Shown here: piece after piece, positions 7,459 to 50,849 of the stretch
Numbering within the stretch: the stretch's first letter is position 1
Layout: every line of letters begins with the position of its first letter
NCBI GenBank assembly: GCA_965198285.1
Contig: OZ240251.1
Span: 821,752 to 885,751 of the forward strand
Direction: 5' to 3'
Origin: Chloroflexota bacterium
GTDB taxonomy: Bacteria > Chloroflexota > UBA11872
DNA length: 64,000 bases
Program-made: the position numbers and the translations under genes
The notes under the pieces: model-generated
Told to the model about the DNA's origin: nothing
The model's database searches: none
The model's input: only the letters and a program-made list of their open reading frames with translations

Positions 7459-8229
7459 TCAATTCGTCGCCCGCCGGTATTCGTACGTCGCCGCCCCCAC
7501 CAGCACCAGCGTCGTCGCCAGCAACACCCAAATGCCCGGCAGGATGCTGTCCCAAACCCAGCCTTCGATGATCACGGCGCGCACGGCCACCATGATGTAC
7601 TCGATGGGATTCAGGCCAACGGCCACCTGGAACCAGCCGGTCAGCAGGTCGCGCGGCATGAAGGCCGAGGTCAGAAACGCCAGCGGCATGAAGAGCAGCC
7701 AGCTATTCACCGTCACCTGCACGCTGCGGGTGCGCATGGCGACGATCAGGCCTACGCAGCCCATCGCCACGCCCAGCAATGTGGTGCCCACGATGACGCC
7801 CAGCACGCCGAGGATTCCGCCTTCGAAGCGCACGCCGATGGCCGTGGCCACCAGGATGATCGCCAGCACCTGCGCCATGGCCCGCGTGCCCCCAATCAGC
7901 AGCGTGCCCAGCAGGATCGAAAAGCGGTTCACGGGCGACAGCAGTAGCTTGTCCACGTAGCCCGACATCATGTCCGTCAGCAGCACCATGGCCATGTCGC
8001 TACCGCTGAAGACCACCGCCATCACGATCACCATGGCGGCCAGGAAGGCCTGGTAGTCGTCGGCCGGGAACCCCGGCAGCGCCGTGATCCCGCGCAGCGG
8101 CTCGCCAAAGAACAGGAACATGAACGCCGACGACAGCACCGCCGCCACGATCATCCACGGCTGCGCCAGCCACGTCTTCAGGTTCCGAACGTAAATGAAA
8201 TAGCTCTCTCGCAGTACAAGCATTGGCAT
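7459..8229 (-). CDS. ABC-2 type transporter permease
   Basis: Multi-TM 256-aa protein. Start taken at MPMLVL with an ATGA overlap to the upstream ATPase stop. Confidence 0.75.
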   Translation of the reverse strand: MPMLVLRESYFIYVRNLKTWLAQPWMIVAAVLSSAFMFLFFGEPLRGITALPGFPADDYQAFLAAMVIVMAVVFSGSDMAMVLLTDMMSGYVDKLLLSPVNRFSILLGTLLIGGTRAMAQVLAIILVATAIGVRFEGGILGVLGVIVGTTLLGVAMGCVGLIVAMRTRSVQVTVNSWLLFMPLAFLTSAFMPRDLLTGWFQVAVGLNPIEYIMVAVRAVIIEGWVWDSILPGIWVLLATTLVLVGAATYEYRRATN

Positions 8230-9254
8230 TACCTCCGGTTGACGCCCATCCACTGGCTCCACATGCGGTCTTCGGCGTCGCCATCGGCGTCTGAGTCGCG
8301 AATCTGGCGGCCGGTGTGCTGGAGGAAGACGTCGTCCAGCGATGGGCGGGTGATGGACAGGTTGGCGATGGACAGGTTGGCGCCGCGAAACGCGTCCATG
8401 ATTGCCGGGGCTGCGGCGCCGCCGTCGCTGACGGTGGCGGTTAGACCGCCGGCCGCGATGTCCGCCTGCTGGACTCCGGGCAGGGCGCGCACGGCCGTCA
8501 GGGCCGCGGCCACGCGGTCGTCCGCCGATTCGTTTGAGTCAAAGGCCACGTGCACGATGTCCCCGCCCACGCTCGCCTTCAGCTCGGCGGGGGAGCCTCC
8601 GGCCACCAGGCGTCCGTGGTCGATGATGGCCAGCCGCCGGCAGAGCCGGTCGGCCTCGTCCATGTGCTGCGTCGTCAGGAAGATCGTCACGCCCTGAGCA
8701 TTGAGATGTTCCAGGTGCTCCCAAACGGCAATCCGGCTTTGCGGATCCAGGCCCGTGGTCGGTTCGTCCAGAAACAGGACGCCCGGGTTGTGCATCAGCG
8801 CGCCGGCCAGGTCGATCCGCCGCCGCATCCCGCCCGAGTAGGACCCAACGCGGCGGTCGGCGACGGACGTCAGCCCCACCAGATCCAGCAGCTCCGCGGC
8901 CCGGGCGCGCGCCTGGGCGCGCGACAGCCCGTAGAGCAATCCTTGCAATTCCAGAAAGTCACGTCCCTTCGAGAGGTCGTCCAGTCCCACCTCTTGCAGC
9001 GCCACGCCAATGGCTTGCCGCACCGCTTTCGGATCGCGGGTTACGTCCAGGCCGGCCACCTCCACGCGACCGGAGCTCTTGGTCAGCAGCGTGGCCAGAA
9101 TCTTGATGGTGGTGGTCTTGCCCGCGCCGTTCGGTCCCAGGAAGCCGAAGAACTCGCCGCGCTCGACCTCAAAGCTGATCCCGTCCACGGCGCGCACGCC
9201 GCCCGGATAGGTCTTGGCCAGCCCTTCCACCAGGACCGCTGGACCGTTCGTCAT
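8229..9254 (-). CDS. ABC transporter ATP-binding protein (DrrA-like, with C-terminal DUF4162-type extension)
   Basis: Walker A GPNGAGKTT, signature YSGGMRRR, Walker B LFLDEPTTGLD. Start set at MTNGPAVLVEGL rather than the 63-codon upstream extension of the track ORF. Confidence 0.8.
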   Translation of the reverse strand: MTNGPAVLVEGLAKTYPGGVRAVDGISFEVERGEFFGFLGPNGAGKTTTIKILATLLTKSSGRVEVAGLDVTRDPKAVRQAIGVALQEVGLDDLSKGRDFLELQGLLYGLSRAQARARAAELLDLVGLTSVADRRVGSYSGGMRRRIDLAGALMHNPGVLFLDEPTTGLDPQSRIAVWEHLEHLNAQGVTIFLTTQHMDEADRLCRRLAIIDHGRLVAGGSPAELKASVGGDIVHVAFDSNESADDRVAAALTAVRALPGVQQADIAAGGLTATVSDGGAAAPAIMDAFRGANLSIANLSITRPSLDDVFLQHTGRQIRDSDADGDAEDRMWSQWMGVNRR

Positions 9255-9701
9255 CACGTGCTCCTGTCGTGTCTCCAGTCGGCGTCCGCCCTGGGCCGGC
9301 CTCCGCTCCCCGACCGGTAGTCCATCACGAAGTCGATCTGTTTGGGAGGGGATAGCGCTCTCCACGCCAATTGGCGACCCCTGAATCGAGGAAGTTGCGA
9401 TGGCTTGACCAAGTCGCGCTACCATTATTGGGCTAGGAACCAACTAATGGTCCTACCCTCTCATGATGTAACATGGCAGCCATAGAGTCGTGTTCTGGCC
9501 AACGCCGAACGAGCTCCAACACCGCAGCTAATCTACCTTGGATACGTAAATCCGGATTGTTGCGTCGGCGAACCAAACCGTCGGCCTTGATACCTTTGGC
9601 AACCCATCGACTCTCACTTTAAGTGCTTGTGACGATCAGAACTAACGTGTGCTTTTCGCGCCGACCGACATCTCATAATCTGGCCCATATTCCAGCCAAC
9701 C

Positions 9702-10301
9702 CTATCTGGGAATAGTCGACTGGCCGACCTGCTGCTCGCCCTCGTGTTCGGAGTTTAAAGACTGTAGAAATCTAGTGACCGGCAAGATACTTTCTTGGCC
9801 GACATCCCAGCCAAGTTTCTCGGCACGCGAACAGATTGTGTCTGCCGTTAGAGGTTGCGGATCAGCGTCAAGAACATAGGAAACCTTCGCAGCTAACGAA
9901 AGCTGATTGTAATCTAAATCTCCTGACGAAGTAATTCGGCTAGCGGCTTGCCCAATCTTCGTCGCCGAATTCGTGTTTTTCTCGTTAAGGGTACAAGCGA
10001 GAGAGGCACCCTCGTTCGTAAGACTGTAGTCATACCGAATGCGACCATCGTGAGACGACTTACCAGAGTCGAATCTGATTTCATCCTCTTTAACAAAACC
10101 GAGTTGGACAAGCAAGCTTATCGCAGAGTCTATCTCCGGAGCGAATGGTCCGTAAAAATGCGGTCTGAACGAACAGTAATTTTGGCCGACGATTTTCTGT
10201 ACAAAGTACGCTCGCTTTTGAAGAAGCGTGCGCCCTTCAATCTTCCGATTCCAATTTTCAAGGAGAAGCAGTAAAAACTCAGCGGTGCTCAACTCCATCA
10301 A
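9702..10301 (-). CDS. Panacea (DUF4065, SocA/GepA-like) domain protein - putative antitoxin-like partner
   Basis: 199 aa in low-GC DNA. TLLQKRAYFVQKIVGQ...FRPHFYGPFAPEI resembles the LQKLLYYAQ / W.YGPV.PEVY core of DUF4065 (recalled consensus). ATGA overlap with the upstream HD gene. Confidence 0.5.
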   Translation of the reverse strand: MMELSTAEFLLLLLENWNRKIEGRTLLQKRAYFVQKIVGQNYCSFRPHFYGPFAPEIDSAISLLVQLGFVKEDEIRFDSGKSSHDGRIRYDYSLTNEGASLACTLNEKNTNSATKIGQAASRITSSGDLDYNQLSLAAKVSYVLDADPQPLTADTICSRAEKLGWDVGQESILPVTRFLQSLNSEHEGEQQVGQSTIPR

Positions 10302-11696
10302 CTAGCCTCCTGAGTATCCTGCCTCGCACCGAGGACATCGTCCATTATACCCTCAATCTCCTCCTGCAGGCCAATTCTTCCTGCGTCCGAATCGTAGGCA
10401 GCGTCAAGATTGTCCGTTGGGGCGTAGATGGATACAAACTCGCGTGCAAGGGATCTACTGAGTGATTGAAATATCATTGATTCATCGCGAAACTCGGTGG
10501 GGGCAGAACCAGCGTGAATGACCAGGAGATTGCCCTCGTCATTCGATTCGGATTTCTTCAGTCCCCAATTGAGCGAGTGCTTTGAAAAGATTACATCATC
10601 CGGTTCAATTGAAATGGCCCTTGCCACAGCTTGCTCCACTCGACGCTTGAGCTGAGCATTGATTTGCGATGTTAGTGCAGTTCGTGACTTAGCGGGCATC
10701 GCATCAAGCTTTCGATGGAAGATTCGCTTAAATAGCCTTCTTTGCTTGAGTCTGGTCATCAGGCGAGAGAACTTTGTCGTGTCTTCTGCATCTTCAGCAT
10801 ACTGAAGCAGGCGAAGGTCATCCCACATAGATAGTTCAATTGCATAGTCCATGGAATCTCTGAAAGTGAACGCGTCTTGGATTGGTTTGAGTTCGTCGTG
10901 AGTTACAGCGAGAAGAAGGGCTCTGATTAACATATGATCCGTGCACAGCCGCACGGGATGAGAATATACCTGAGCGTGCATATAATACCGTGCCTGTACG
11001 AATTGCTCAGTAGCTTCAATCCCACCCGAGCTGATCCCCAAGTATGACTCTTGGCTCTCGGGATACCGGCGAATCGTGCGATGCAGGCGGTCGATATCAT
11101 ACTGCCCATACTTTACGCCGCAAAAGTGTGCATCGCGGAGGAGATAGTCTTGCTTGTCGGCGTCTATCGGTCCTGTAATTGCTTGCGAAAGAAGGTGGTT
11201 GGTCGTTCTCTTAGTGAGCACGTGAGATATCTCTTGGAGTTCATGGGGCGAAATATGATTGGATAGTGAGCTGTCTTCTTCAATGAGATCAGAGAGCAAT
11301 CTTCTCGTGCGCATCATCGGGAATCGAAGTTCCTGAGAGGGTTTCCGAGATCTCCAGCAAGGCTTGTTCCGCGAGATGCGAGAACGGGCCGTGGCCGATG
11401 TCGTGAAGTATGGCGACAAGACCGAGCAAGCGGCGTTCATCGTCGTTCATGTTTGTGGCGGCGGCAATACGTGACGCGATATGGGCGACTCCGAGTGTGT
11501 GATCGAAGCGAGTGTGAGTAGCGCCAGGGTAGACGAGGGACGTAAAGGCAAGCTGGCGAATACGGCGGAGTCGCTGCAAAAGGGGTGTATCGATGATGCG
11601 CCACTGCAAAGGTTCGAGGTGTATATAGCCGTGTACTGGATCGCGAACGTCGTTGGGTGGCAAGTTTGCCCATCGCTGTATTATTGTGATGCTCAT
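10298..11696 (-). pseudogene. SAMHD1/dGTPase-like HD-domain dNTP triphosphohydrolase, interrupted by a +1 frameshift near 11290-11330
   Basis: N-terminal ORF (11696..11289) has DPVHGYIHLEP...LLQRLRRIRQLA...THTRFDHTLGV...LHDIGHGPFSH. The downstream frame (..10298) has ITGPIDADKQDYLLRDAHFCGV. Both are SAMHD1 signature blocks, but they sit in two frames that overlap by about 40 nt. Confidence 0.75.
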
Positions 11697-12054
11697 GGTA
11701 ATGTAACACGTCGGTGTTTGGCTGGGGTTTCGCGTGATAGATTGACCTCGTGGGATGTTGATGCGGGTGCCTCTGGTAACGGGTGGAGACGCGATTGCAA
11801 CTTCGCCGACAGACTCAGCGCCTCCCTGAGCGGTGATCGTGAGATGAAATCTGAAGCAGCGAAGTGTCGTTCGTTACGTCTCGGGACGGCTCGAAACTCA
11901 TCTTTCCTAGGATGAAGTCGCTAGAGTTGGCTGCCACCATGCGGCTCCCAGCGTCCAATTGCTGCTTAAGGCACCACTCATCAATAGCCCACTCTGCTAC
12001 CGTGCCCCGCTAGAAAAACCTCGGCGCCGGGCTCACGACGCCGACGAACGGGAG

Positions 12055-23754: not shown

Positions 23755-24357
23755 CTAGCGGAGGTGCTGGAGGATTACGGTCAACTCGTCGGCTAAGATC
23801 CGCCCGCCAACGCGCAGCGCTGTCGTGCCGTCGGAGTTCACGAAGACCCAGTACGGGTAGCCGCGCAAGCCAAAGGCATCGGCTACTTCGTTCTTGGTGT
23901 CCACCACAACCGGCACGGTCCAGCCTTCGCGTTCCAGCCACGCATCCGGCGGATAGTTGGGTCGACTGGCGTCGATGCCCGTGGCAACGGCGTAGAGATC
24001 AATCTGTTCTGGAACGCCCCCGGCGTCCACCAAGGCCTGCACGACAGGTACCTCGGCCTGGCAGTGCGGTCACCAGTGCGCCAGAAAGATCAGCGCCTTC
24101 GTGCGTCCGTCGTTGGTAATCGAGACGGCCGTTCCGTCGAAGGATGTGCCGCGCACCTCCGGCGCCGGCTGGCCCGCCGCGCTGTCTGGGACGGGCTGTG
24201 CGTAGGCGGCCAGCTTGGCGCCGCTGATCTCCGGATCCCGGACGCTCGCGCCGCCGTCCTGCGATTCACCGCAGGCGGCCACGAGCGGCACGATCCCAAC
24301 GACCAGCGCGAAAGCCACGAGGCGCACGGCCAGCGCGACGCGATTCTTCAAACTCAC
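23755..24357 (-). CDS. TlpA/ResA-like thiol-disulfide oxidoreductase lipoprotein with in-frame TGA (24070-24072) at the first Cys of CxxC - selenocysteine candidate (W-U-P-H-C)
   Basis: Two track ORFs (24357..24070 and 24042..23755) are one frame separated only by TGA. Read-through gives ...ALIFLAHW[TGA]PHCQAEVPVVQALVDAG..., which aligns to ResA FLNFWGTWCEPCKKEFP. The N-terminal lipobox is LVAAC. Confidence 0.6.
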
Positions 24358-24455
24358 TGGTCGGCGCCTCCCCAGGCAAGCGGCTCACTCAGCATAGCCG
24401 CATGCCTGCCGGACAGGTTGCCAAGGACGCGATGGTCGGGATTCGCAGGCGGCGC

Positions 24456-24815
24456 TCATTCGGGTTCCCAAGTTAGGGCACGGCCGCAGCCCCACGCGGC
24501 GGCGTCCATTGCCGCTACCCGGTCAGCGTCGGTGTGGTCGGGGCTCGCCGTCGCGAGGACGCGTGCCGTCGCTGGAAGAACCTCCTGGGCGACCATCGCG
24601 CCCCACTCATAGGGAACCGGCTCGTTCCTATCGAACCACTCCGCCAGGGAAATAGCCACTGAGTGGATGACAAGAAATGCCGATGGATGCCTTGCGGTGT
24701 TTAGCAGTCGCAGGCTCTCGTGCGCGACTTCAACGAGCGTACGCTGGCTAGGTTGCTGCGACAGCAGCCGCCGCAGATGCTCGTCGTTCGGTTGACCGTT
24801 GACCGAAGTCATCAA
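24456..24815 (-). CDS. hypothetical protein
   Basis: 119-aa ORF with no recognisable motif. Overlaps the pyrE 3' end by 68 nt, so its start is uncertain. Confidence 0.3.
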   Translation of the reverse strand: MMTSVNGQPNDEHLRRLLSQQPSQRTLVEVAHESLRLLNTARHPSAFLVIHSVAISLAEWFDRNEPVPYEWGAMVAQEVLPATARVLATASPDHTDADRVAAMDAAAWGCGRALTWEPE

Positions 24816-26548: not shown

Positions 26549-26623
26549 TGGTAGCCCCGCCCGGACTCGAACCGGGGCGCATGGTTTAGGAAACCACCGC
26601 TCTATCCACTGAGCTACGGGGCC
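26549..26623 (-). tRNA. tRNA-Arg (anticodon CCT)
   Basis: Hand-folded cloverleaf. Acceptor GGCCCCG/CGGGGCU with G1-U72, D-stem GCUC/GAGC, anticodon loop UUCCUAA, T-arm CCCGG-UUCGAGU-CCGGG, and encoded CCA. Confidence 0.85.
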
Positions 26624-31758: not shown

Positions 31759-32727
31759 TTACGGCAGGCCCAGGGCCTCCACAGCTTCATGTAAGTCGGG
31801 CGGCAGCGGTCCCGCTTGGACGGCCGCCACGCTTTCCTCGATCTCGGACGGCGTAGCCGCCCCGACCAGGATGGTGGCAATGCTTCGGTCGGCCACCAGG
31901 AATCGCAGGGTTAGCGTGACCAGTGACAACTGGCTTTCCCGTTGCAACTCAACCAGACGCAACACCCGCCGCTGTTCCTCGGGCGTCATCCCGCTCGGCC
32001 AGACTGGCGGTGTCCGAAGCCACTCCGGGCGGATCGTCACGAGCTGACCACGCCGGAACACGCCGCCCAGCGCAATCGCGGTACCGCGCTCTCCGGCAAC
32101 CGGCAGCAGCTGGCGACGGATACCGCGGTCGATCAGGCCGTAGCCGAGAGCGCTCAGACAGACGTCCACCTTCGCTTCGCCCGCCGCGCGCATGACGTGC
32201 GCCAGGTGGTCGGGGCTGTTGCCGCTGATGCCGACGTGGCGGCAACGACCCTCGGCCCGGGCTTCGCGAAGTACCTGCATCACCGGTGCGTTCGCCACGT
32301 CGGGCTCGGACTCCAAGTCAACGAACAGATCATCGCTCGGCTCGTCGGTCCACCAGTAGTGATGGTCGGCTTCATGGATCAGCAGCACGTCCACGCACTC
32401 GCGCCGCAGGACCCGCAGGTTTTCCTCGAGCTGCGTGTGCAGGGCGTCGGGCGAGCGAAAGCGACCGGGCTGCGCCAGGTGGCCGATCTTGGTCGACACC
32501 AGCTGTGGTTCCGGGCGTTCCTGCAGGGCGACACCGAGAATTGCCTGGGCGACGCCAGAACTGTAGAGCGGGGCGGTGTCGAAGTAGTTGACCCCGAGTT
32601 CCAACGCGCGGTGGACCGTTGCCATGCCGTCGGCGAACGACACGCGCGGCAGTCCGCAGCCACCCAGGCTGAGGGCGGTTACCCGCTCGCCGGTACGCCC
32701 GAAGGGCCGCTGCTCCAGCCTGTGCAT
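31759..32727 (-). CDS. aldo/keto reductase
   Basis: GVNYFDTAPLYSSG and IGISGNSPDHL blocks. Start at MHRLEQRPF, avoiding overlap with the paralog start. Confidence 0.85.
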   Translation of the reverse strand: MHRLEQRPFGRTGERVTALSLGGCGLPRVSFADGMATVHRALELGVNYFDTAPLYSSGVAQAILGVALQERPEPQLVSTKIGHLAQPGRFRSPDALHTQLEENLRVLRRECVDVLLIHEADHHYWWTDEPSDDLFVDLESEPDVANAPVMQVLREARAEGRCRHVGISGNSPDHLAHVMRAAGEAKVDVCLSALGYGLIDRGIRRQLLPVAGERGTAIALGGVFRRGQLVTIRPEWLRTPPVWPSGMTPEEQRRVLRLVELQRESQLSLVTLTLRFLVADRSIATILVGAATPSEIEESVAAVQAGPLPPDLHEAVEALGLP

Positions 32728-32884
32728 CGCAGAGCCTAACCCGTGTCTGTCTGGGCTGAACGCTCCGGAGAGACGGGCGCGGTATCGGGGGAGGGTCATC
32801 CTGCGGTTCGAGTCTCACGCAGCCACCGCGCTAGGCTGGCGGCGGCGAGTCTCCGGCGCCGGTCGGCAACAAGGAGAGGGCGCG

Positions 32885-35266
32885 ATGGCGATAGATCACT
32901 GGCCTGACACCCCCACGGTCCTCCAGGGCGCCTACGCCTGCGACGTGGCGCCGGACCCGGACGGCGGCGTCTTTGGCGCCTGGGCCGGGAGCGGCTGGGG
33001 CGAAGAGGCGCTCTTCGGACTGCGCATGTCTCACCCGGGTGGGCATTGGCAGTTCGCGCCAGGGCACGACGAACGCGACTTCATGGCGCGCCTGGGAAGA
33101 GGGCGCTTTCGGGTCTACGCGGGCCAGCTGGCCGGCGATGACCTCGATCCGGTCCAACTCACGGAGAGCCGTACCGCGATCCAGGATCCCGCAGTGGCCG
33201 CCTTTGGCGATCAACATCTCGTGGCCTGGGGCGAGCGCCTTGATAACCGCTTCGTGGTGCGGGCCTGGACCGGCGCGGAGGCCGAGACCGTAGCCGCAAC
33301 GCCCGCCTCACTCACCCGGCCGGCCGCGGCCATCGACACGGACGGACAGCCGTGGGTCGCCTGGCAGGCGTTCGCGGGCGACACCTGCGTCGTGGTGGTG
33401 AGCCGTCGCCTGGCGGGCGGCTGGACGGACCCGGTGGTGGCCTCCGTTGCGGGCCAGTCGGCCTGGCGGCCGGCGTTGCGCGCGGCAGCTGGCCAGGGCG
33501 TGTGGCTGGCCTGGGACGCCTGGACCGGGCACCACTTCCACGTATTCGCCCGGCGTATTGGGGCGGACGGAGCGCTTGGCCCAGTGATTCAGATCAGCGA
33601 CCTGCCCCTCCTGGCCATGGACGCGGACATTGCGGTGGATGCGGACGACACGGCCTGGGTGACCTGGGAGCAGTCGCCGGCCTGGGGTGACGATCACCGG
33701 TTCAACAGGTCCCGGCATCTCACGTTGGCCGCCGTCGACGCCAGCGGAGAGACCTTTCTGGCCGGGAGCCCATGGGGCGCCGGGCAGGCGCCGATCCCGA
33801 TCGAGAGCTTCATGCAGAGCATCTGCGCGGAGTACATCGTGCCGGTGTCGCCACGCTTGGTTGCGGGACGCGATGGAATCGAGCTGTTCTTTCAGCGCTT
33901 CCGCAGCCGGCACCAGAAGGACTTTGGCTGGGGGCTGGAGCGCATGGTCTACGCCGGCTCGTCCTGGTCCGACCCGGAGACGGTGAGCCCCTTTCAGGGC
34001 ATGCCGGACACGCGCTACGGCGTGGCGGCGCTGGCAGACGGGCGGCGGGTGGTGGCGCACAACGCCACCGAATACATCCCCATGCAGACCGTTGAGCGCG
34101 CGGCGGCCGGCCTGCCGAAACTGCGCGGCGGCAGCGCACCGGTGAACCGTGAGCGAATCGAAGTCCTGACGCTGGAGCCGTCGGCCGCCGCGGTTGAGCC
34201 GCCGCTACGGGTTGAGTTCGCGCGCTACGAAGGTTCCCGGATTGACAACCCGCAGGCCCGCAGGGATGGCCGCACGCTGACCGTGGGCGACCAGACCTAC
34301 CACCTGTACTGGGGCGACATGCACCGGCACTCGCATCTCTCGAAGTGCATGTCGCCGAACGATGGGACGCCGCTGCAGCACTTCCGCTGGGCCGTCGATC
34401 ACAACCGCATGGACTGGTGGGCGCTCACCGAGCACCTGGAATACCTGAGCTACAACGAGTGGCGCCGGGTTGAGGAAACCGTGGCGGCCTTTACCAGCGA
34501 CGGACGCTTCGAGCCGCTCTTCGGCTTCGAGTGGGGCAACAACCCCGGCCACACCAACATCTTTTACCGGGATCAGCAGTTGGGCGAGGAACTACGCGCC
34601 CTGACCCTGATGTCGCCCAGCCTCGAGGACCTGATGGAGCGCTGGGACTCGCGCCTGCCCGCCGGCGAGGTACTGGCGGCGCGCCACTACCAAGGTCACC
34701 GGCAACCGGACGTCTACGAGGGCTATCGCGCCACCTGGGAACCCTGCATGGAGATCATCCAGGCCCGCGGCGACCAGCGGGAGTGGATCGAGACCTTCCT
34801 GCGCGAGGGCGCCAGGATCGGCTTCATCGGCGCCACCGACCACGCCCGCCACTGGCACTTTGCTTACTGCATGACCGGGGTGTGGGCCACCGAGCCGACC
34901 CGCGAGGCGATCTTCGACGCCATCTGGCAGCGGCGGACCATCGCCGGCTCGTCCAAGATCCTGCTGCACACCGAGGTCTCGGGTGTTCCCATGGGCGCGG
35001 AGGGTGAGATCGAGGGCGACCCCGAACTGCGGGTGATCGCCGAATCCGCCCAGCCGCTGCGCGAGATTGACGTCTACCGCAACGGCACGCTGGCGCACAG
35101 GGAATCCGTCGATATGCCCAAGCTGGACTGGACCTGGACCGACCGCGGCAACCCCCGCAGCCACAACTACTATTACGTGCGCCTGACCGCCCAACCCGCG
35201 CTTCCTCACGCCACCCCGGCCGTGGCCTACGCCTCGCCTGTTTGGGTGCGCGTCAATAGGCCCTAG
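32885..35266 (+). CDS. paralog of 29371..31746 (beta-propeller-like + PHP/DUF3604-like protein)
   Basis: About 75-80% aa identity to the first copy over the full length. Start at ATG 32885 (MAIDHWPDTPTVLQGAY), preceded by AAGGAGAG. The track's 100-codon upstream extension overlaps the AKR gene and is rejected. Confidence 0.7.
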   Translation: MAIDHWPDTPTVLQGAYACDVAPDPDGGVFGAWAGSGWGEEALFGLRMSHPGGHWQFAPGHDERDFMARLGRGRFRVYAGQLAGDDLDPVQLTESRTAIQDPAVAAFGDQHLVAWGERLDNRFVVRAWTGAEAETVAATPASLTRPAAAIDTDGQPWVAWQAFAGDTCVVVVSRRLAGGWTDPVVASVAGQSAWRPALRAAAGQGVWLAWDAWTGHHFHVFARRIGADGALGPVIQISDLPLLAMDADIAVDADDTAWVTWEQSPAWGDDHRFNRSRHLTLAAVDASGETFLAGSPWGAGQAPIPIESFMQSICAEYIVPVSPRLVAGRDGIELFFQRFRSRHQKDFGWGLERMVYAGSSWSDPETVSPFQGMPDTRYGVAALADGRRVVAHNATEYIPMQTVERAAAGLPKLRGGSAPVNRERIEVLTLEPSAAAVEPPLRVEFARYEGSRIDNPQARRDGRTLTVGDQTYHLYWGDMHRHSHLSKCMSPNDGTPLQHFRWAVDHNRMDWWALTEHLEYLSYNEWRRVEETVAAFTSDGRFEPLFGFEWGNNPGHTNIFYRDQQLGEELRALTLMSPSLEDLMERWDSRLPAGEVLAARHYQGHRQPDVYEGYRATWEPCMEIIQARGDQREWIETFLREGARIGFIGATDHARHWHFAYCMTGVWATEPTREAIFDAIWQRRTIAGSSKILLHTEVSGVPMGAEGEIEGDPELRVIAESAQPLREIDVYRNGTLAHRESVDMPKLDWTWTDRGNPRSHNYYYVRLTAQPALPHATPAVAYASPVWVRVNRP

Positions 35267-36066: not shown

Positions 36067-37236
36067 GTGGCAAAGACAGCTCCGCTCTTTAACCACTGCC
36101 TCGAGCGTTCCACATCACACGAGCATTGGCGGGGTGCATCGCGGTTTGACAGCCTGAATCGATCCGCGATTCCCGCGATGCAGGCCGCCCGTGACGAGCT
36201 GGCGCGCTGGTACTCGCGATTTCCCGATCAGGACGGTGATCTGCGCTCTCGCTTTCGAGGACCTGACGACAACCACGACGGGGCGTTCTTTGAACTGTTC
36301 CTGCACGAGTTGCTTCCACGTCTCGGGCTATCTGTGAAGGCGCACCCCAGGCTGGAAGACGGAAGCAGTCCCGACTTCCTCGTCGCAGGCCCTGATGGAA
36401 AAGCCTTTGTTGAGGCGACGTATCTGAAGCAGCGATCCACGGTTCCTCCGCTCGAAGCCAATGTGCTCAATGCGATCGACGATCTGGATTGCCATGTTCC
36501 TACGGATGTTGGGCTGAGTGTGTGGGTCACTGGATCTTTGAAGCGAGAACCGAGGCTCAGACCAATCACGGATGATGTCTGCAGCTGGTTGAACCAGCTC
36601 GATTCACGGAGCGTGCGCTGGCGTGACGGGGCTGAGAAACACATTCGGGTCGATCCTAAGTGCAGCGATTTAATTCTCGCGCTACAGGCAGTCCCACGGA
36701 CAGTAGCCAGCCGTGTGATTCAGGCTTGGTCATCTAGTGGCTGGAGCGGGATCGTCGGCGAGGAGGTATACAACGCGGTCTCGAAGAAGGTCCGCAAGTA
36801 CAAGAGTCTCGACCATCCGCTGGTCGTCGCGGTGAACATCGCCAGCGCCGGTGCCGAACCGCACGAGGAGGCTGCGCTGTTCGGCCACCCGACGCTTCGC
36901 CTCCGACGTAGCGAGGATGGCGTCAATCTGACACCGGCCGGGATCATGCACACCGGGAAGGCGCTTTGGTTTGACAACACGAAGCGCCGCAATCACTACC
37001 CTAGGCTGAGCGCCGTGATGATGTTCCACGATCTCGCGCCATGGACCGTCGCGAACGTTTCTGCCTGCCTCTACCTGAATCCGTACGAAGACGACCGGGT
37101 GCCGCGGGAACTGCGGACCCTGGGCTACGCCGCGGAGTCGGCCGGGCAACTCCGGAGGTACAAGGGAAGTCGCTTAGTCAGGGATGTGCTTGGGCTGCCG
37201 GAAGACTGGCCTGGCAGCTTCGTCCTCGGCGACTAG
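36067..37236 (+). CDS. hypothetical protein (389 aa, no recognised domain)
   Basis: Long ORF with protein-like composition in the lower-GC segment next to tRNA-Glu. Confidence 0.45.
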   Translation: MAKTAPLFNHCLERSTSHEHWRGASRFDSLNRSAIPAMQAARDELARWYSRFPDQDGDLRSRFRGPDDNHDGAFFELFLHELLPRLGLSVKAHPRLEDGSSPDFLVAGPDGKAFVEATYLKQRSTVPPLEANVLNAIDDLDCHVPTDVGLSVWVTGSLKREPRLRPITDDVCSWLNQLDSRSVRWRDGAEKHIRVDPKCSDLILALQAVPRTVASRVIQAWSSSGWSGIVGEEVYNAVSKKVRKYKSLDHPLVVAVNIASAGAEPHEEAALFGHPTLRLRRSEDGVNLTPAGIMHTGKALWFDNTKRRNHYPRLSAVMMFHDLAPWTVANVSACLYLNPYEDDRVPRELRTLGYAAESAGQLRRYKGSRLVRDVLGLPEDWPGSFVLGD

Positions 37237-49717: not shown

Positions 49718-50849
49718 ATGACCGACGCCGTCGACACCACCGATCTTGAGGGCCGCGCGCGCCGCGCCCGGCAGCGCGTGACCGAGATTCGGAGGCATCT
49801 TTGACTTGGCGGCCAAGCGAGACGCGCTAGCCGAACTCGACCGTCAGGTAGCCGCTCCCAACCTCTGGGACGATCCTTCCCGCGCCCGCGACGTCATGCG
49901 CCGCTACCGGCAAGTCCAGGACGAAGTCGACCTGTGGGACCAGTTGGACGCCGAAGCGGACGACGTGGTCGGCCTTGTGGAGTTCCTGGATCCGGGTGAC
50001 GCCGAGCTCCAGCAGGAAATCGCGGGCGAAGTCGCCGCCCTGGAGACCCGCCTGGCTTCGTTGGAGTTTCAACTCCTGTTGGGTGACGAGTACGACGAGT
50101 ACGACGCCTTCCTGACCGTCCAGTCAGGCGCGGGCGGCACCGAGTCGCAGGACTGGGCCGAGATGCTGCTGCGCATGTACTCCCGCTGGGCCGATGCGCG
50201 CGCGTTCACGCCTGAGGTTGTGGATATCTCGCACGGCGAAGAGGCGGGCATCAAGAGCGCGACGCTGCGCGCTTCGGGCCGTTACGCCTACGGCTATCTC
50301 AAGGCCGAGCGCGGGGTTCATCGGCTCGTCCGGCTCTCGCCGTTCGACGCCAGCAATCGCCGCCACACCTCCTTCGCGCGCGTGGACGTCGTGCCGGTAC
50401 TGGAGGATCTGAACGAGGTGGCGATCAGCCCGGATGAGCTTCGCGTTGAGACGTTCCGGGCCAGTGGCGCCGGCGGCCAGTACGTCAACAAGACCGACTC
50501 GGCGGTACGCATCCGTCACGAGCCCACCGGCATCGTGGTCTCGTGCCAAAACCAGCGCTCGCAGCACCAGAACCGCGAGGTCGCCATGGAAATGCTCGGC
50601 GCGCGCCTGCTGGAACGGCAGATCGCCGAGCGCGAGGCTAAGCAGGCCCGGCTGCGCGGCGACCAGGCCGCCGTCGACTTCGGCAGCCAGATTCGCTCCT
50701 ACGTCCTGCATCCCTATCGCCAGGTGAAGGACCTGCGCACCGGGCTCGAGGTCGGCAACGCGGACGCAGTGCTTGATGGACGCATCGATCCCTTTATCGA
50801 GGCGTGGCTCCGCGCGTCGATTTCGGCCGGAAGCGACGCCCGCGCGTGA
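49718..50849 (+). CDS. prfB: peptide chain release factor 2, expressed via programmed +1 frameshift at CTT TGA C (49799-49805)
   Basis: Frame-0 ORF MTDAVDTTDLEGRARRARQRVTEIRRHL ends at in-frame TGA 49802. The +1 frame continues DLAAKRDALAELD...SGAGGQYVNKTDSAVR (GGQ motif). Confidence 0.9.
49791..49805 (+). promoter_or_regulatory. prfB autoregulatory frameshift cassette: internal SD-like GGAGG, 3-nt spacer, CTT TGA C
   Basis: Read directly. Identical architecture to the E. coli prfB recoding site. Confidence 0.85.

Follow-up and report, generated by a model that had tools for sequence, protein, structure and literature searches.

A conserved in-frame UGA at the redox-active position of an exported thioredoxin-fold protein of Chloroflexota and Acidimicrobiia: a probable selenoprotein

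In a stretch of 64,000 nucleotides from a Chloroflexota bacterium (lineage UBA11872; assembly GCA_965198285.1, contig OZ240251.1, positions 821,752 to 885,751 of the forward strand; the whole stretch is called the window here), a gene for a TlpA/ResA-type thioredoxin-fold protein carries an in-frame TGA exactly at the codon of its catalytic cysteine. We propose that this UGA (24072-24070, minus strand) is translated as selenocysteine (Sec) and that the gene encodes a selenoprotein, and we put the probability of this at about 85%. It is the best reading of the locus, given that at least 22 species of two phyla retain the TGA and that purifying selection acts on both sides of it; our residual doubt stems from the Sec machinery and from how weakly a selenocysteine insertion sequence (SECIS) is supported. 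An initial annotation, made from the letters of the window alone, had nominated the gene as a selenoprotein candidate of the UxxC type (U, Sec); this is now borne out by a UGA conserved in the column of the catalytic Cys, by selection to either side of it and by sister orthologs that use TGC.

Results

The minus strand holds a single frame of 200 codons, which runs from a GTG at 24357 to a TAG stop at 23757-23755 and in which the TGA at 24072-24070 (context ...LIFLAHW-TGA-PHCQAEVP...) is the only internal stop. The two open reading frames (ORFs) of 95 residues in the supplied gene track (24070-24357 and 23755-24042) are the two halves of this frame and, as had been suggested, make up one gene. 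On the evidence of the frame, the Pfam and NCBIfam matches, the alignment and the selection analysis given below, the recoded coding sequence (23755-24357, minus strand) would specify a thiol:disulfide oxidoreductase of TlpA/ResA fold with Sec at residue 96. Nine nucleotides (nt) 5' of the GTG start, we read a Shine-Dalgarno-like GGGGAGG (24367-24373, minus strand), which presumably serves the gene.

Elsewhere in the window, UGA behaves as an ordinary stop codon. The prfB gene has the canonical programmed +1 frameshift site through which release factor 2 regulates its own synthesis (GGAGG-CAU-CUU-UGA-C, 49791-49805, plus strand), followed by the body of the gene (49806-50849, plus strand; NCBIfam prfB, 475 bits), and 18 of 41 crude gene calls in the window end in TGA. 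Both observations agree with the initial annotation, which had treated UGA as a genuine stop on the strength of the prfB site, and both exclude a reassigned genetic code. When the window was scanned by GC content at third codon positions (GC3) for other TGA-interrupted frames, only antisense-frame artefacts emerged, and the gene described here was itself missed.

Domain searches were run on the read-through product with Cys placed at the TGA. This sequence passed the Pfam thresholds for Redoxin (PF08534; 42.6 bits, cut-off 26.6), AhpC-TSA (PF00578; 39.2 bits, cut-off 26) and Thioredoxin_2 (PF13098; 30.9 bits, cut-off 27), and it matched the NCBIfam models for StoA, ResA, DsbE and TlpA below their equivalog cut-offs. 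The only full-length matches in a collection of 5.8 billion proteins were at most 63% identical and were labelled Chloroflexota or Limnocylindrales. In the alignment, the TGA column is Cys in all 16 full-length homologs, within an invariant H-W-C-x-H-C; thus the UGA does fall on the N-terminal redox Cys of the CxxC of a thioredoxin fold, where it had originally been placed. The resulting motif, U-P-H-C in the window, as in other forms with the TGA (U forms), and C-P-H-C in most of the forms with a cysteine codon (Cys forms), spans 24061-24072 (minus strand). Further downstream, a G-Y-P-Y segment (23851-23862, minus strand) contains a proline (P168) that is invariant in the alignments and, judging from the family, probably occupies the position of the cis-Pro loop of thioredoxin folds.

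The fold itself was compared by way of a Cys ortholog, P0001, which is 62% identical to the window protein and stands in for it. The AlphaFold2 model of P0001 has a mean confidence (pLDDT) of 88.6, and in it a helix (97-111) begins directly after W95-C96, which together with the alignment places the redox motif at the N-terminus of helix alpha-1. Foldseek matched the model to ResA, StoA, Etrx2 and the structure 4nmu at E values of about 1e-10, with target-normalised template-modelling (TM) scores of 0.8-0.85, and the corresponding scores against ResA, StoA, Etrx2, SdbA and the Mycobacterium tuberculosis proteins DsbE and DsbF lay between 0.75 and 0.85. By sequence, the closest solved structures are pneumococcal Etrx2 and Etrx1, StoA, a thioredoxin-family protein from Geobacter, and ResA.

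The N-terminus of the window protein is hydrophobic and ends in a lipobox, L-V-A-A-C (24285-24271), so patterned that we predict a signal peptide (24271-24357, minus strand) with Cys29 as the site of lipidation. The closest Cys orthologs retain a lipobox of the form AACGE, and the actinobacterial U forms have, by the same kind of pattern, a single transmembrane helix as an anchor in its place. Since the protein has either a signal peptide with a lipobox or a membrane anchor, the domain is predicted to lie outside the cytoplasm. The initial annotation had suggested an exported lipoprotein and called this unusual for a Sec protein; the first part stands, but such a location is less unusual than had been supposed, as exported UxxC selenoproteins of thioredoxin fold are an already described class.

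Both half-ORFs are present in a public protein collection, where exact look-up returned clusters of six and 13 distinct sequences that occur on many contigs, several of which are chromosomes of 3.4-4.0 Mb. Through this look-up we fetched 13 relative loci from six ENA samples, comprising long-read contigs of the metaMDBG style and two Illumina scaffolds (L007 and L013). Over the 603 nt of the gene, these loci are 90-99% identical to the window with no indels, and in every one of the 13 the codon in question is TGA, which is also the sole internal stop. Furthermore, a degenerate DNA pattern for F-x-A-H-W-TGA-x-H-C-Q, scanned against the JGI metagenomes and against one genome per GTDB species, matched four metagenome loci and 22 species-representative genomes, the latter being metagenome-assembled genomes (MAGs) of Chloroflexota (19) and of Acidimicrobiia/Actinomycetota (three). 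All 26 are true homologs, and in 25 the conserved frame runs on to its own stop (the fetched locus of the remaining one, L026, ends earlier), so that the pattern is a simple DNA signature, free of false positives in both of these very large collections.

More than 35 independent sequences, drawn from two phyla, therefore retain the UGA. Its retention in at least 22 species supports the earlier view that an accidental nonsense mutation is unlikely, and, as the TGA is shared by independent assemblies and many species, both a sequencing error and a recent nonsense mutation were rejected. That the true codon is TGC or TGT and the TGA an artefact of sequencing or assembly has little in its favour beyond prior possibility, except that many of the relatives come from long-read metagenome assemblies. 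The identical TGA recurs across independent samples and technologies, including the two Illumina scaffolds and 22 public MAGs from different studies, and we regard the chance of an artefact as practically nil. The initial annotation had allowed that resequencing might reveal TGC or TGT; long-read and Illumina assemblies agree on TGA.

Purifying selection acts on both halves of the gene. Among the 14 closest sequences, variable sites at the first, second and third codon positions number 7, 6 and 23 in the mature N-terminal part, and 5, 4 and 23 in the C-terminal half. Similarly, the ratio of nonsynonymous to synonymous substitution rates (dN/dS; Nei-Gojobori, 25 unique Chloroflexota sequences) is 0.21 for the 66 codons that precede the UGA and 0.16 for the 104 that follow it. 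Orthologs with the same disruption had been foreseen as possible pseudogenes; the disruption is indeed found in them, but the genes are intact and under selection.

These data bear on whether the gene might be truly split, with the 95-residue lipoprotein acting alone or together with a C-terminal fragment started at the GTG at 24042, either as an old pseudogene or as a protein in two pieces. In its favour, every genome has the locus annotated by gene callers as two ORFs, and the internal GTG is preceded, at a distance of 8 nt, by a GAGG. However, the GAGG occurs in the Cys forms too, within codons for A-E-V, and a conserved PHCQAEVPV is encoded in frame by the 27 nt that separate the UGA from this GTG. 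Neither an indel nor a second stop was found in more than 35 sequences, both halves are selected, and a C-terminal fragment with neither signal peptide nor active site could not meet an exported N-terminal one. We give a split gene very little credence.

The nearest Cys-containing proteins, P0002 and P0014 (about 60% identity), are syntenic orthologs that use TGC. They share the neighbourhood of the gene, which consists of a gene of 492 or 507 residues upstream, then the tlpA-like gene and then a GFO_IDH_MocA gene, with a Fic gene farther upstream in the P0014 locus. The window clade and these two proteins are thus a classical Sec/Cys ortholog pair. In a neighbour-joining tree, the Chloroflexota U clade is sister to the P0002/P0014 Cys clade (about 62% identical), whereas the Acidimicrobiia-type U clade is distant, at about 45% identity to the Chloroflexota U clade. 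From this separation of the U clades it follows that Cys and UGA have been exchanged more than once in the subfamily, or that Sec arose early and repeated losses followed.

A constraint at the RNA level begins at the UGA. Codons +1 to +20 have a rate of synonymous substitution (dS) of 0.28, compared with 0.58-0.60 in the rest of the gene, and of all its stretches of 19 codons, the one with the least third-position diversity begins at the UGA itself (Mann-Whitney p=0.0013). The zone of suppressed synonymous variation, gene nt 274-369 (23989-24084, minus strand), has one variable site in a set of 11 unique close relatives, as against about 18% gene-wide. Although this constraint is demonstrated, that it represents a SECIS bound by SelB is something we infer.

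RNA folding predicts two hairpins in this zone. Counting the U of the UGA as nt 1, hairpin 1 (nt 16-44; 24029-24057, minus strand) is the candidate SECIS and has a lower stem (16-22/38-44), a bulge (U23 A24), an upper stem (25-29/33-37) and an apical loop (C30 G31 U32). The SECIS of Escherichia coli fdhF begins about 11 nt after its UGA and has G23 and U24 in the loop and a bulged U17, and bSECISearch allows distances of 16-37 nt from UGA to loop. We take hairpin 1 to resemble the fdhF element in its spacing and in the G-U of its apical loop. Hairpin 2 (ACGCC-GGG-GGCGU, nt 47-59; 24014-24026, minus strand) covers codons +14 to +18, the third positions of which are invariant in all 25 unique relatives. 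The lone substitution among close relatives turns a U.G pair into U-A. Four of the five Acidimicrobiia-type U forms have a perfect hairpin of 7 bp (AGUCCGA-GGUC-UCGGACU) with its loop at nt 21-24, which is stabler than synonymous recodings of the same genes (z -1.1 to -3.5), whereas four Cys-form genes give z values of 0 or above.

This constraint also bears on leaky termination, in which a near-cognate tRNA (for Trp or Cys) would read through UGA-C at a low level with no dedicated machinery. The base after the UGA is C in all U forms, and UGA-C is the weakest termination context in E. coli; the lack of sel genes in the sequence we searched (see Discussion) would also fit. However, a Trp in place of the catalytic residue would abolish redox activity, and a dN/dS of 0.16 in the C-terminal part would then be hard to explain. 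It is also implausible that such a handicap was kept in at least 22 species of two phyla when a single change from TGA to TGC restores Cys, and the synonymous constraint 3' of the UGA points instead to a dedicated RNA signal. We consider leaky termination scarcely more credible than a split gene.

In other lineages, the family is linked to dsbB. In a Cys-form locus (L043; 2447-3004, plus strand) and in a U-form locus (L027; 4157-4876, minus strand), a gene of the DsbB family (PF02600) and the start of the family gene overlap by 4 nt, and such a gene adjoins the family gene in two further U-form loci (L018, 3754-4311, plus strand; L021, 868-1419, minus strand). A luciferase-like monooxygenase gene comes next in L027 and L043.

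Discussion

Several of our results weigh against Sec, or against the mechanism and role that we attach to it. In the Chloroflexota clade, the downstream hairpins were no stabler than dinucleotide shuffles (z -0.19 and +0.38), and the folding was only marginally stabler than 1000 synonymous recodings (z 0 to -2; hairpin 1, -0.9). As the sequence has 67% GC and these energies are not significant, thermodynamic stability is unusable as evidence in this clade. In counts of covarying pairs, two explicit hairpin models did no better than shuffles, with nearly all pairs invariant and zero to one double changes. Some substitutions break hairpin pairs and the sub-clades fold in three different registers, for which a shift of register or an alternative hairpin is a suggestive but post hoc account. 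No SECIS family of Rfam was found, either in the whole window at the gathering threshold or in the gene region at E<=10, and hairpin 2 (nt 47-59), the best conserved of the hairpins, sits outside the range of distances from UGA to loop that is usual for a bacterial SECIS. A bacterial SECIS had been proposed as a check on the candidate: there are hairpins at the canonical distance, but in the Chloroflexota clade they are weakly supported.

The searches for Sec machinery point in the same direction. ARAGORN detected no tRNA-Sec in the window and 26 related loci, no SelA, SelB or SelD was recognized by NCBIfam models among 20 window ORFs, and tblastn with the E. coli SelA, SelB and SelD found none of them in the window or in any fetched locus (about 300 kb). 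However, these searches cover about 2% of a 3.83-Mb genome, and absence from that fraction says little. As regards function, no dsbB adjoins the gene in the window or in the loci of its clade, and a DsbB search gave no match from the contigs of this clade among its top 120.

A search of PLSDB for a closer SelD query returned no Chloroflexota match. In the literature, SelA and SelB clusters of orthologous groups co-occur in most bins of sponge symbionts, and the nine Chloroflexi bins listed in the table of that paper (Table S4) all have counts of at least one for SelA, SelB and SelD (Slaby et al., 2017; PMC5649159). The use of Sec in Chloroflexi and Actinobacteria is documented in general (PMC1794560; PMC5389517), and an unusual 8/4 tRNA-Sec has been described from both (Mukai et al.; PMC5389517). 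Several MAGs of the clade have isolate names (COS2, RHO1-3, SB0662, Langseth) that seem to be of the kind given in work on sponge microbiomes.

The decoding machinery also bears on a different reassignment, in which the UGA would be recoded as Cys by an opal-suppressor tRNA-Cys(UCA) that resembles tRNA-Sec (the selC* type), possibly with a SelB paralog. Such recoding would account equally well for a UGA in the Cys column, for selection on both sides and for a local RNA constraint, and selC*-type tRNAs have been described and proposed for some Deltaproteobacteria (Mukai et al.; PMC5389517). The system has been reported for Deltaproteobacteria only (PMC5389517), however, and we found no selC*-type tRNA in the window or the related loci. 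What a detour through UGA to reach Cys would gain over the TGC of the sister clade is not obvious, and selenoproteins are classically recognized by just such a repeated exchange of Cys and UGA at the very residue that acts as redox nucleophile. Of the alternatives that we weighed, recoding as Cys is the least improbable, but it is still very improbable.

If the UGA is read as Sec, we envisage the following mechanism. A stem-loop of the mRNA shortly after the UGA would direct SelB to deliver Sec-tRNA(Sec) there; hairpin 1, with G-U in its apical loop, is the candidate. The protein would be exported unfolded through SecYEG, lipidated at Cys29 and anchored in the membrane. There, selenocysteine would be the N-terminal nucleophilic residue of U-P-H-C, and a selenylsulfide (Se-S) between U96 and C99 would cycle with the thiols or disulfides of substrates.

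In which direction the electrons flow is the least certain step. With moderate confidence, we suggest as the most likely role the formation or isomerization of disulfides in exported proteins, with re-oxidation by a quinone reductase of the DsbB type; this is favoured by the DsbA-type xPHC motif and by the adjacency of dsbB to U and Cys forms in other lineages. A reductive, ResA-like role in cytochrome c maturation seems less likely. The protein had initially been called ResA-like, and this holds for the fold, as the Pfam and structure matches show, but not necessarily for the function, given the U-P-H-C motif and the neighbouring dsbB in relatives. More tentatively, and with odds that we place somewhat below even, the protein may belong to a group of Sec-containing, disulfide-forming oxidases of TlpA-type fold with U-P-H-C and a DsbB partner, found in aerobic, apparently sponge-associated Chloroflexota and in Acidimicrobiia, in which Cys and Sec would have been switched at least two independent times. 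If so, a selenylsulfide catalyst would be placed in an oxidizing, oxygen-exposed compartment of the cell, and the group would define a selenoprotein subfamily that annotation pipelines now split into two anonymous ORFs.

UxxC selenoproteins of thioredoxin fold are established predicted families, namely the 'thiol:disulfide interchange protein', Prx-like and DsbA-like families (PMC1794560, PMC9312934, PMC13188914), to which reviews of known selenoproteins add DsbG-like proteins and UGC-containing TlpA proteins. The 'thiol:disulfide interchange protein' (UxxC, PF13098; for example, WP_011366075.1 from Geobacter) and the 'Prx-like thiol:disulfide oxidoreductase' (UxxC, PF00578; Zhang et al., 2006; PMC1794560) have the thioredoxin/TlpA-type fold in common with the window protein. 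In these families, too, Sec stands in place of the first Cys of CxxC and Cys homologs predominate, and both were predicted from Sec/Cys pairs and a downstream hairpin. By domain and motif, the predicted window protein fits the first of them. However, both families were described mainly from anaerobic Deltaproteobacteria, whereas the present subfamily comes from MAGs of Chloroflexota and Acidimicrobiia and, unlike them, has a DsbA-type xPHC motif and a dsbB link in relatives (WP_011366075.1 being compared by its description). A ResA-like selenoprotein with the motif WAxxUGC and a TlpA fold is also catalogued (NF041054); membership in it was rejected, as the window protein scores 25.7 bits against a cut-off of 300 and its motif, HWUPHC, has U-P-H-C rather than U-G-C in register.

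Among proteins that use Cys, Bacillus subtilis ResA and StoA and Bradyrhizobium TlpA are extracytoplasmic reductants for the maturation of cytochrome c, the spore cortex and CuA, respectively. They resemble the window protein in fold (TM 0.8-0.85), in an N-terminal membrane or lipid anchor and in W-C-x-x-C. Their tetrapeptides are CEPC, CPPC or CVPC, however, whereas the window family has CPHC or UPHC, with Sec for Cys in the latter, and the equivalog scores of the window protein fall far below the cut-offs (ResA model NF002854, 36 against 170 bits; StoA, 44 against 210; TlpA, 21 against 230). With neither resBC nor ccdA among its neighbours at the window locus, it is not ResA proper. Pneumococcal Etrx1 and Etrx2, to which the sequence is closest among proteins of solved structure (4hqz, 2yp6; E about 2e-9), are likewise extracellular thioredoxin folds anchored as lipoproteins; they are reductants fed by CcdA that serve MsrAB2, and they have WCGPC and no Sec.

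On the oxidative side, the tetrapeptide of E. coli DsbA is CPHC, as in the C/U-P-H-C of this family, and PDB entry 3c71 is entitled 'ResA variant with a DsbA-like active site motif (CPHC)'. Oxidases of TlpA fold from Gram-positive bacteria (M. tuberculosis DsbE and DsbF, Streptococcus gordonii SdbA) are among the structural matches of P0001, and the DsbA-like selenoprotein family can be placed with this group. In contrast, oxidases of the DsbA/BdbD kind have the DSBA fold with its helical insertion, which the window protein lacks, and the oxidase role of the latter is a proposed one.

The gene almost certainly adds an unannotated member to an already known class of bacterial selenoproteins, and the known principles of Sec decoding are unchanged by it. 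The xPHC, dsbB-linked subfamily and its lineages are not highlighted in the selenoprotein reviews cited here, and the finding would extend the use of selenoproteins to poorly studied lineages of Chloroflexota and Acidimicrobiia. The gene appears as two unnamed ORFs of 95 residues in every public genome examined, and reading the UGA as Sec would repair the annotation in at least 22 species. Furthermore, natural Sec/Cys ortholog pairs with conserved synteny should be useful for asking why Sec replaces Cys, and the family suggests that selenium may serve the formation of disulfide bonds outside the cytoplasm.

Other features of the locus and window

The neighbours of the gene in the window are a phosphoribosyltransferase-like gene, a 119-residue ORF and a GFO_IDH_MocA oxidoreductase gene. 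The 119-residue ORF (24456-24815, minus strand), directly upstream, has no Pfam match; it corresponds to a gene call of 82 residues in two relatives (L008 and L010) and is uncalled in the others, so that it may or may not be coding. Some close relatives have a gene of 447 residues with no Pfam match between the tlpA-like and GFO_IDH_MocA genes (L003, 9395-10738; L008, L010 and L011, 3362-4705 in each; all minus strand). Neither the window nor L001, L002, L004, L005 and others have this gene, which may be a mobile insertion.

Farther away, positions 8001-12000 of the window have a GC content of 0.566, compared with about 0.67 elsewhere, and may have been acquired horizontally; they contain a drrA-like ABC-transporter ATPase gene (8229-9443) and a 380-residue ORF (10298-11440) with no NCBIfam match. 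Two further ORFs on the plus strand, of 892 residues (32588-35266) and 389 residues (36067-37236), have coding-like GC3 and no NCBIfam match at E<=1e-8. Finally, the selenoprotein candidate has a tRNA-Arg(CCT) gene upstream of it, at a distance of 0.1-2.5 kb, in the window (26549-26623, minus strand), in the Acidimicrobiia locus L018 (3578-3651, plus strand) and in most of the loci L016-L039; this tRNA gene is thus a landmark common to loci of both phyla.

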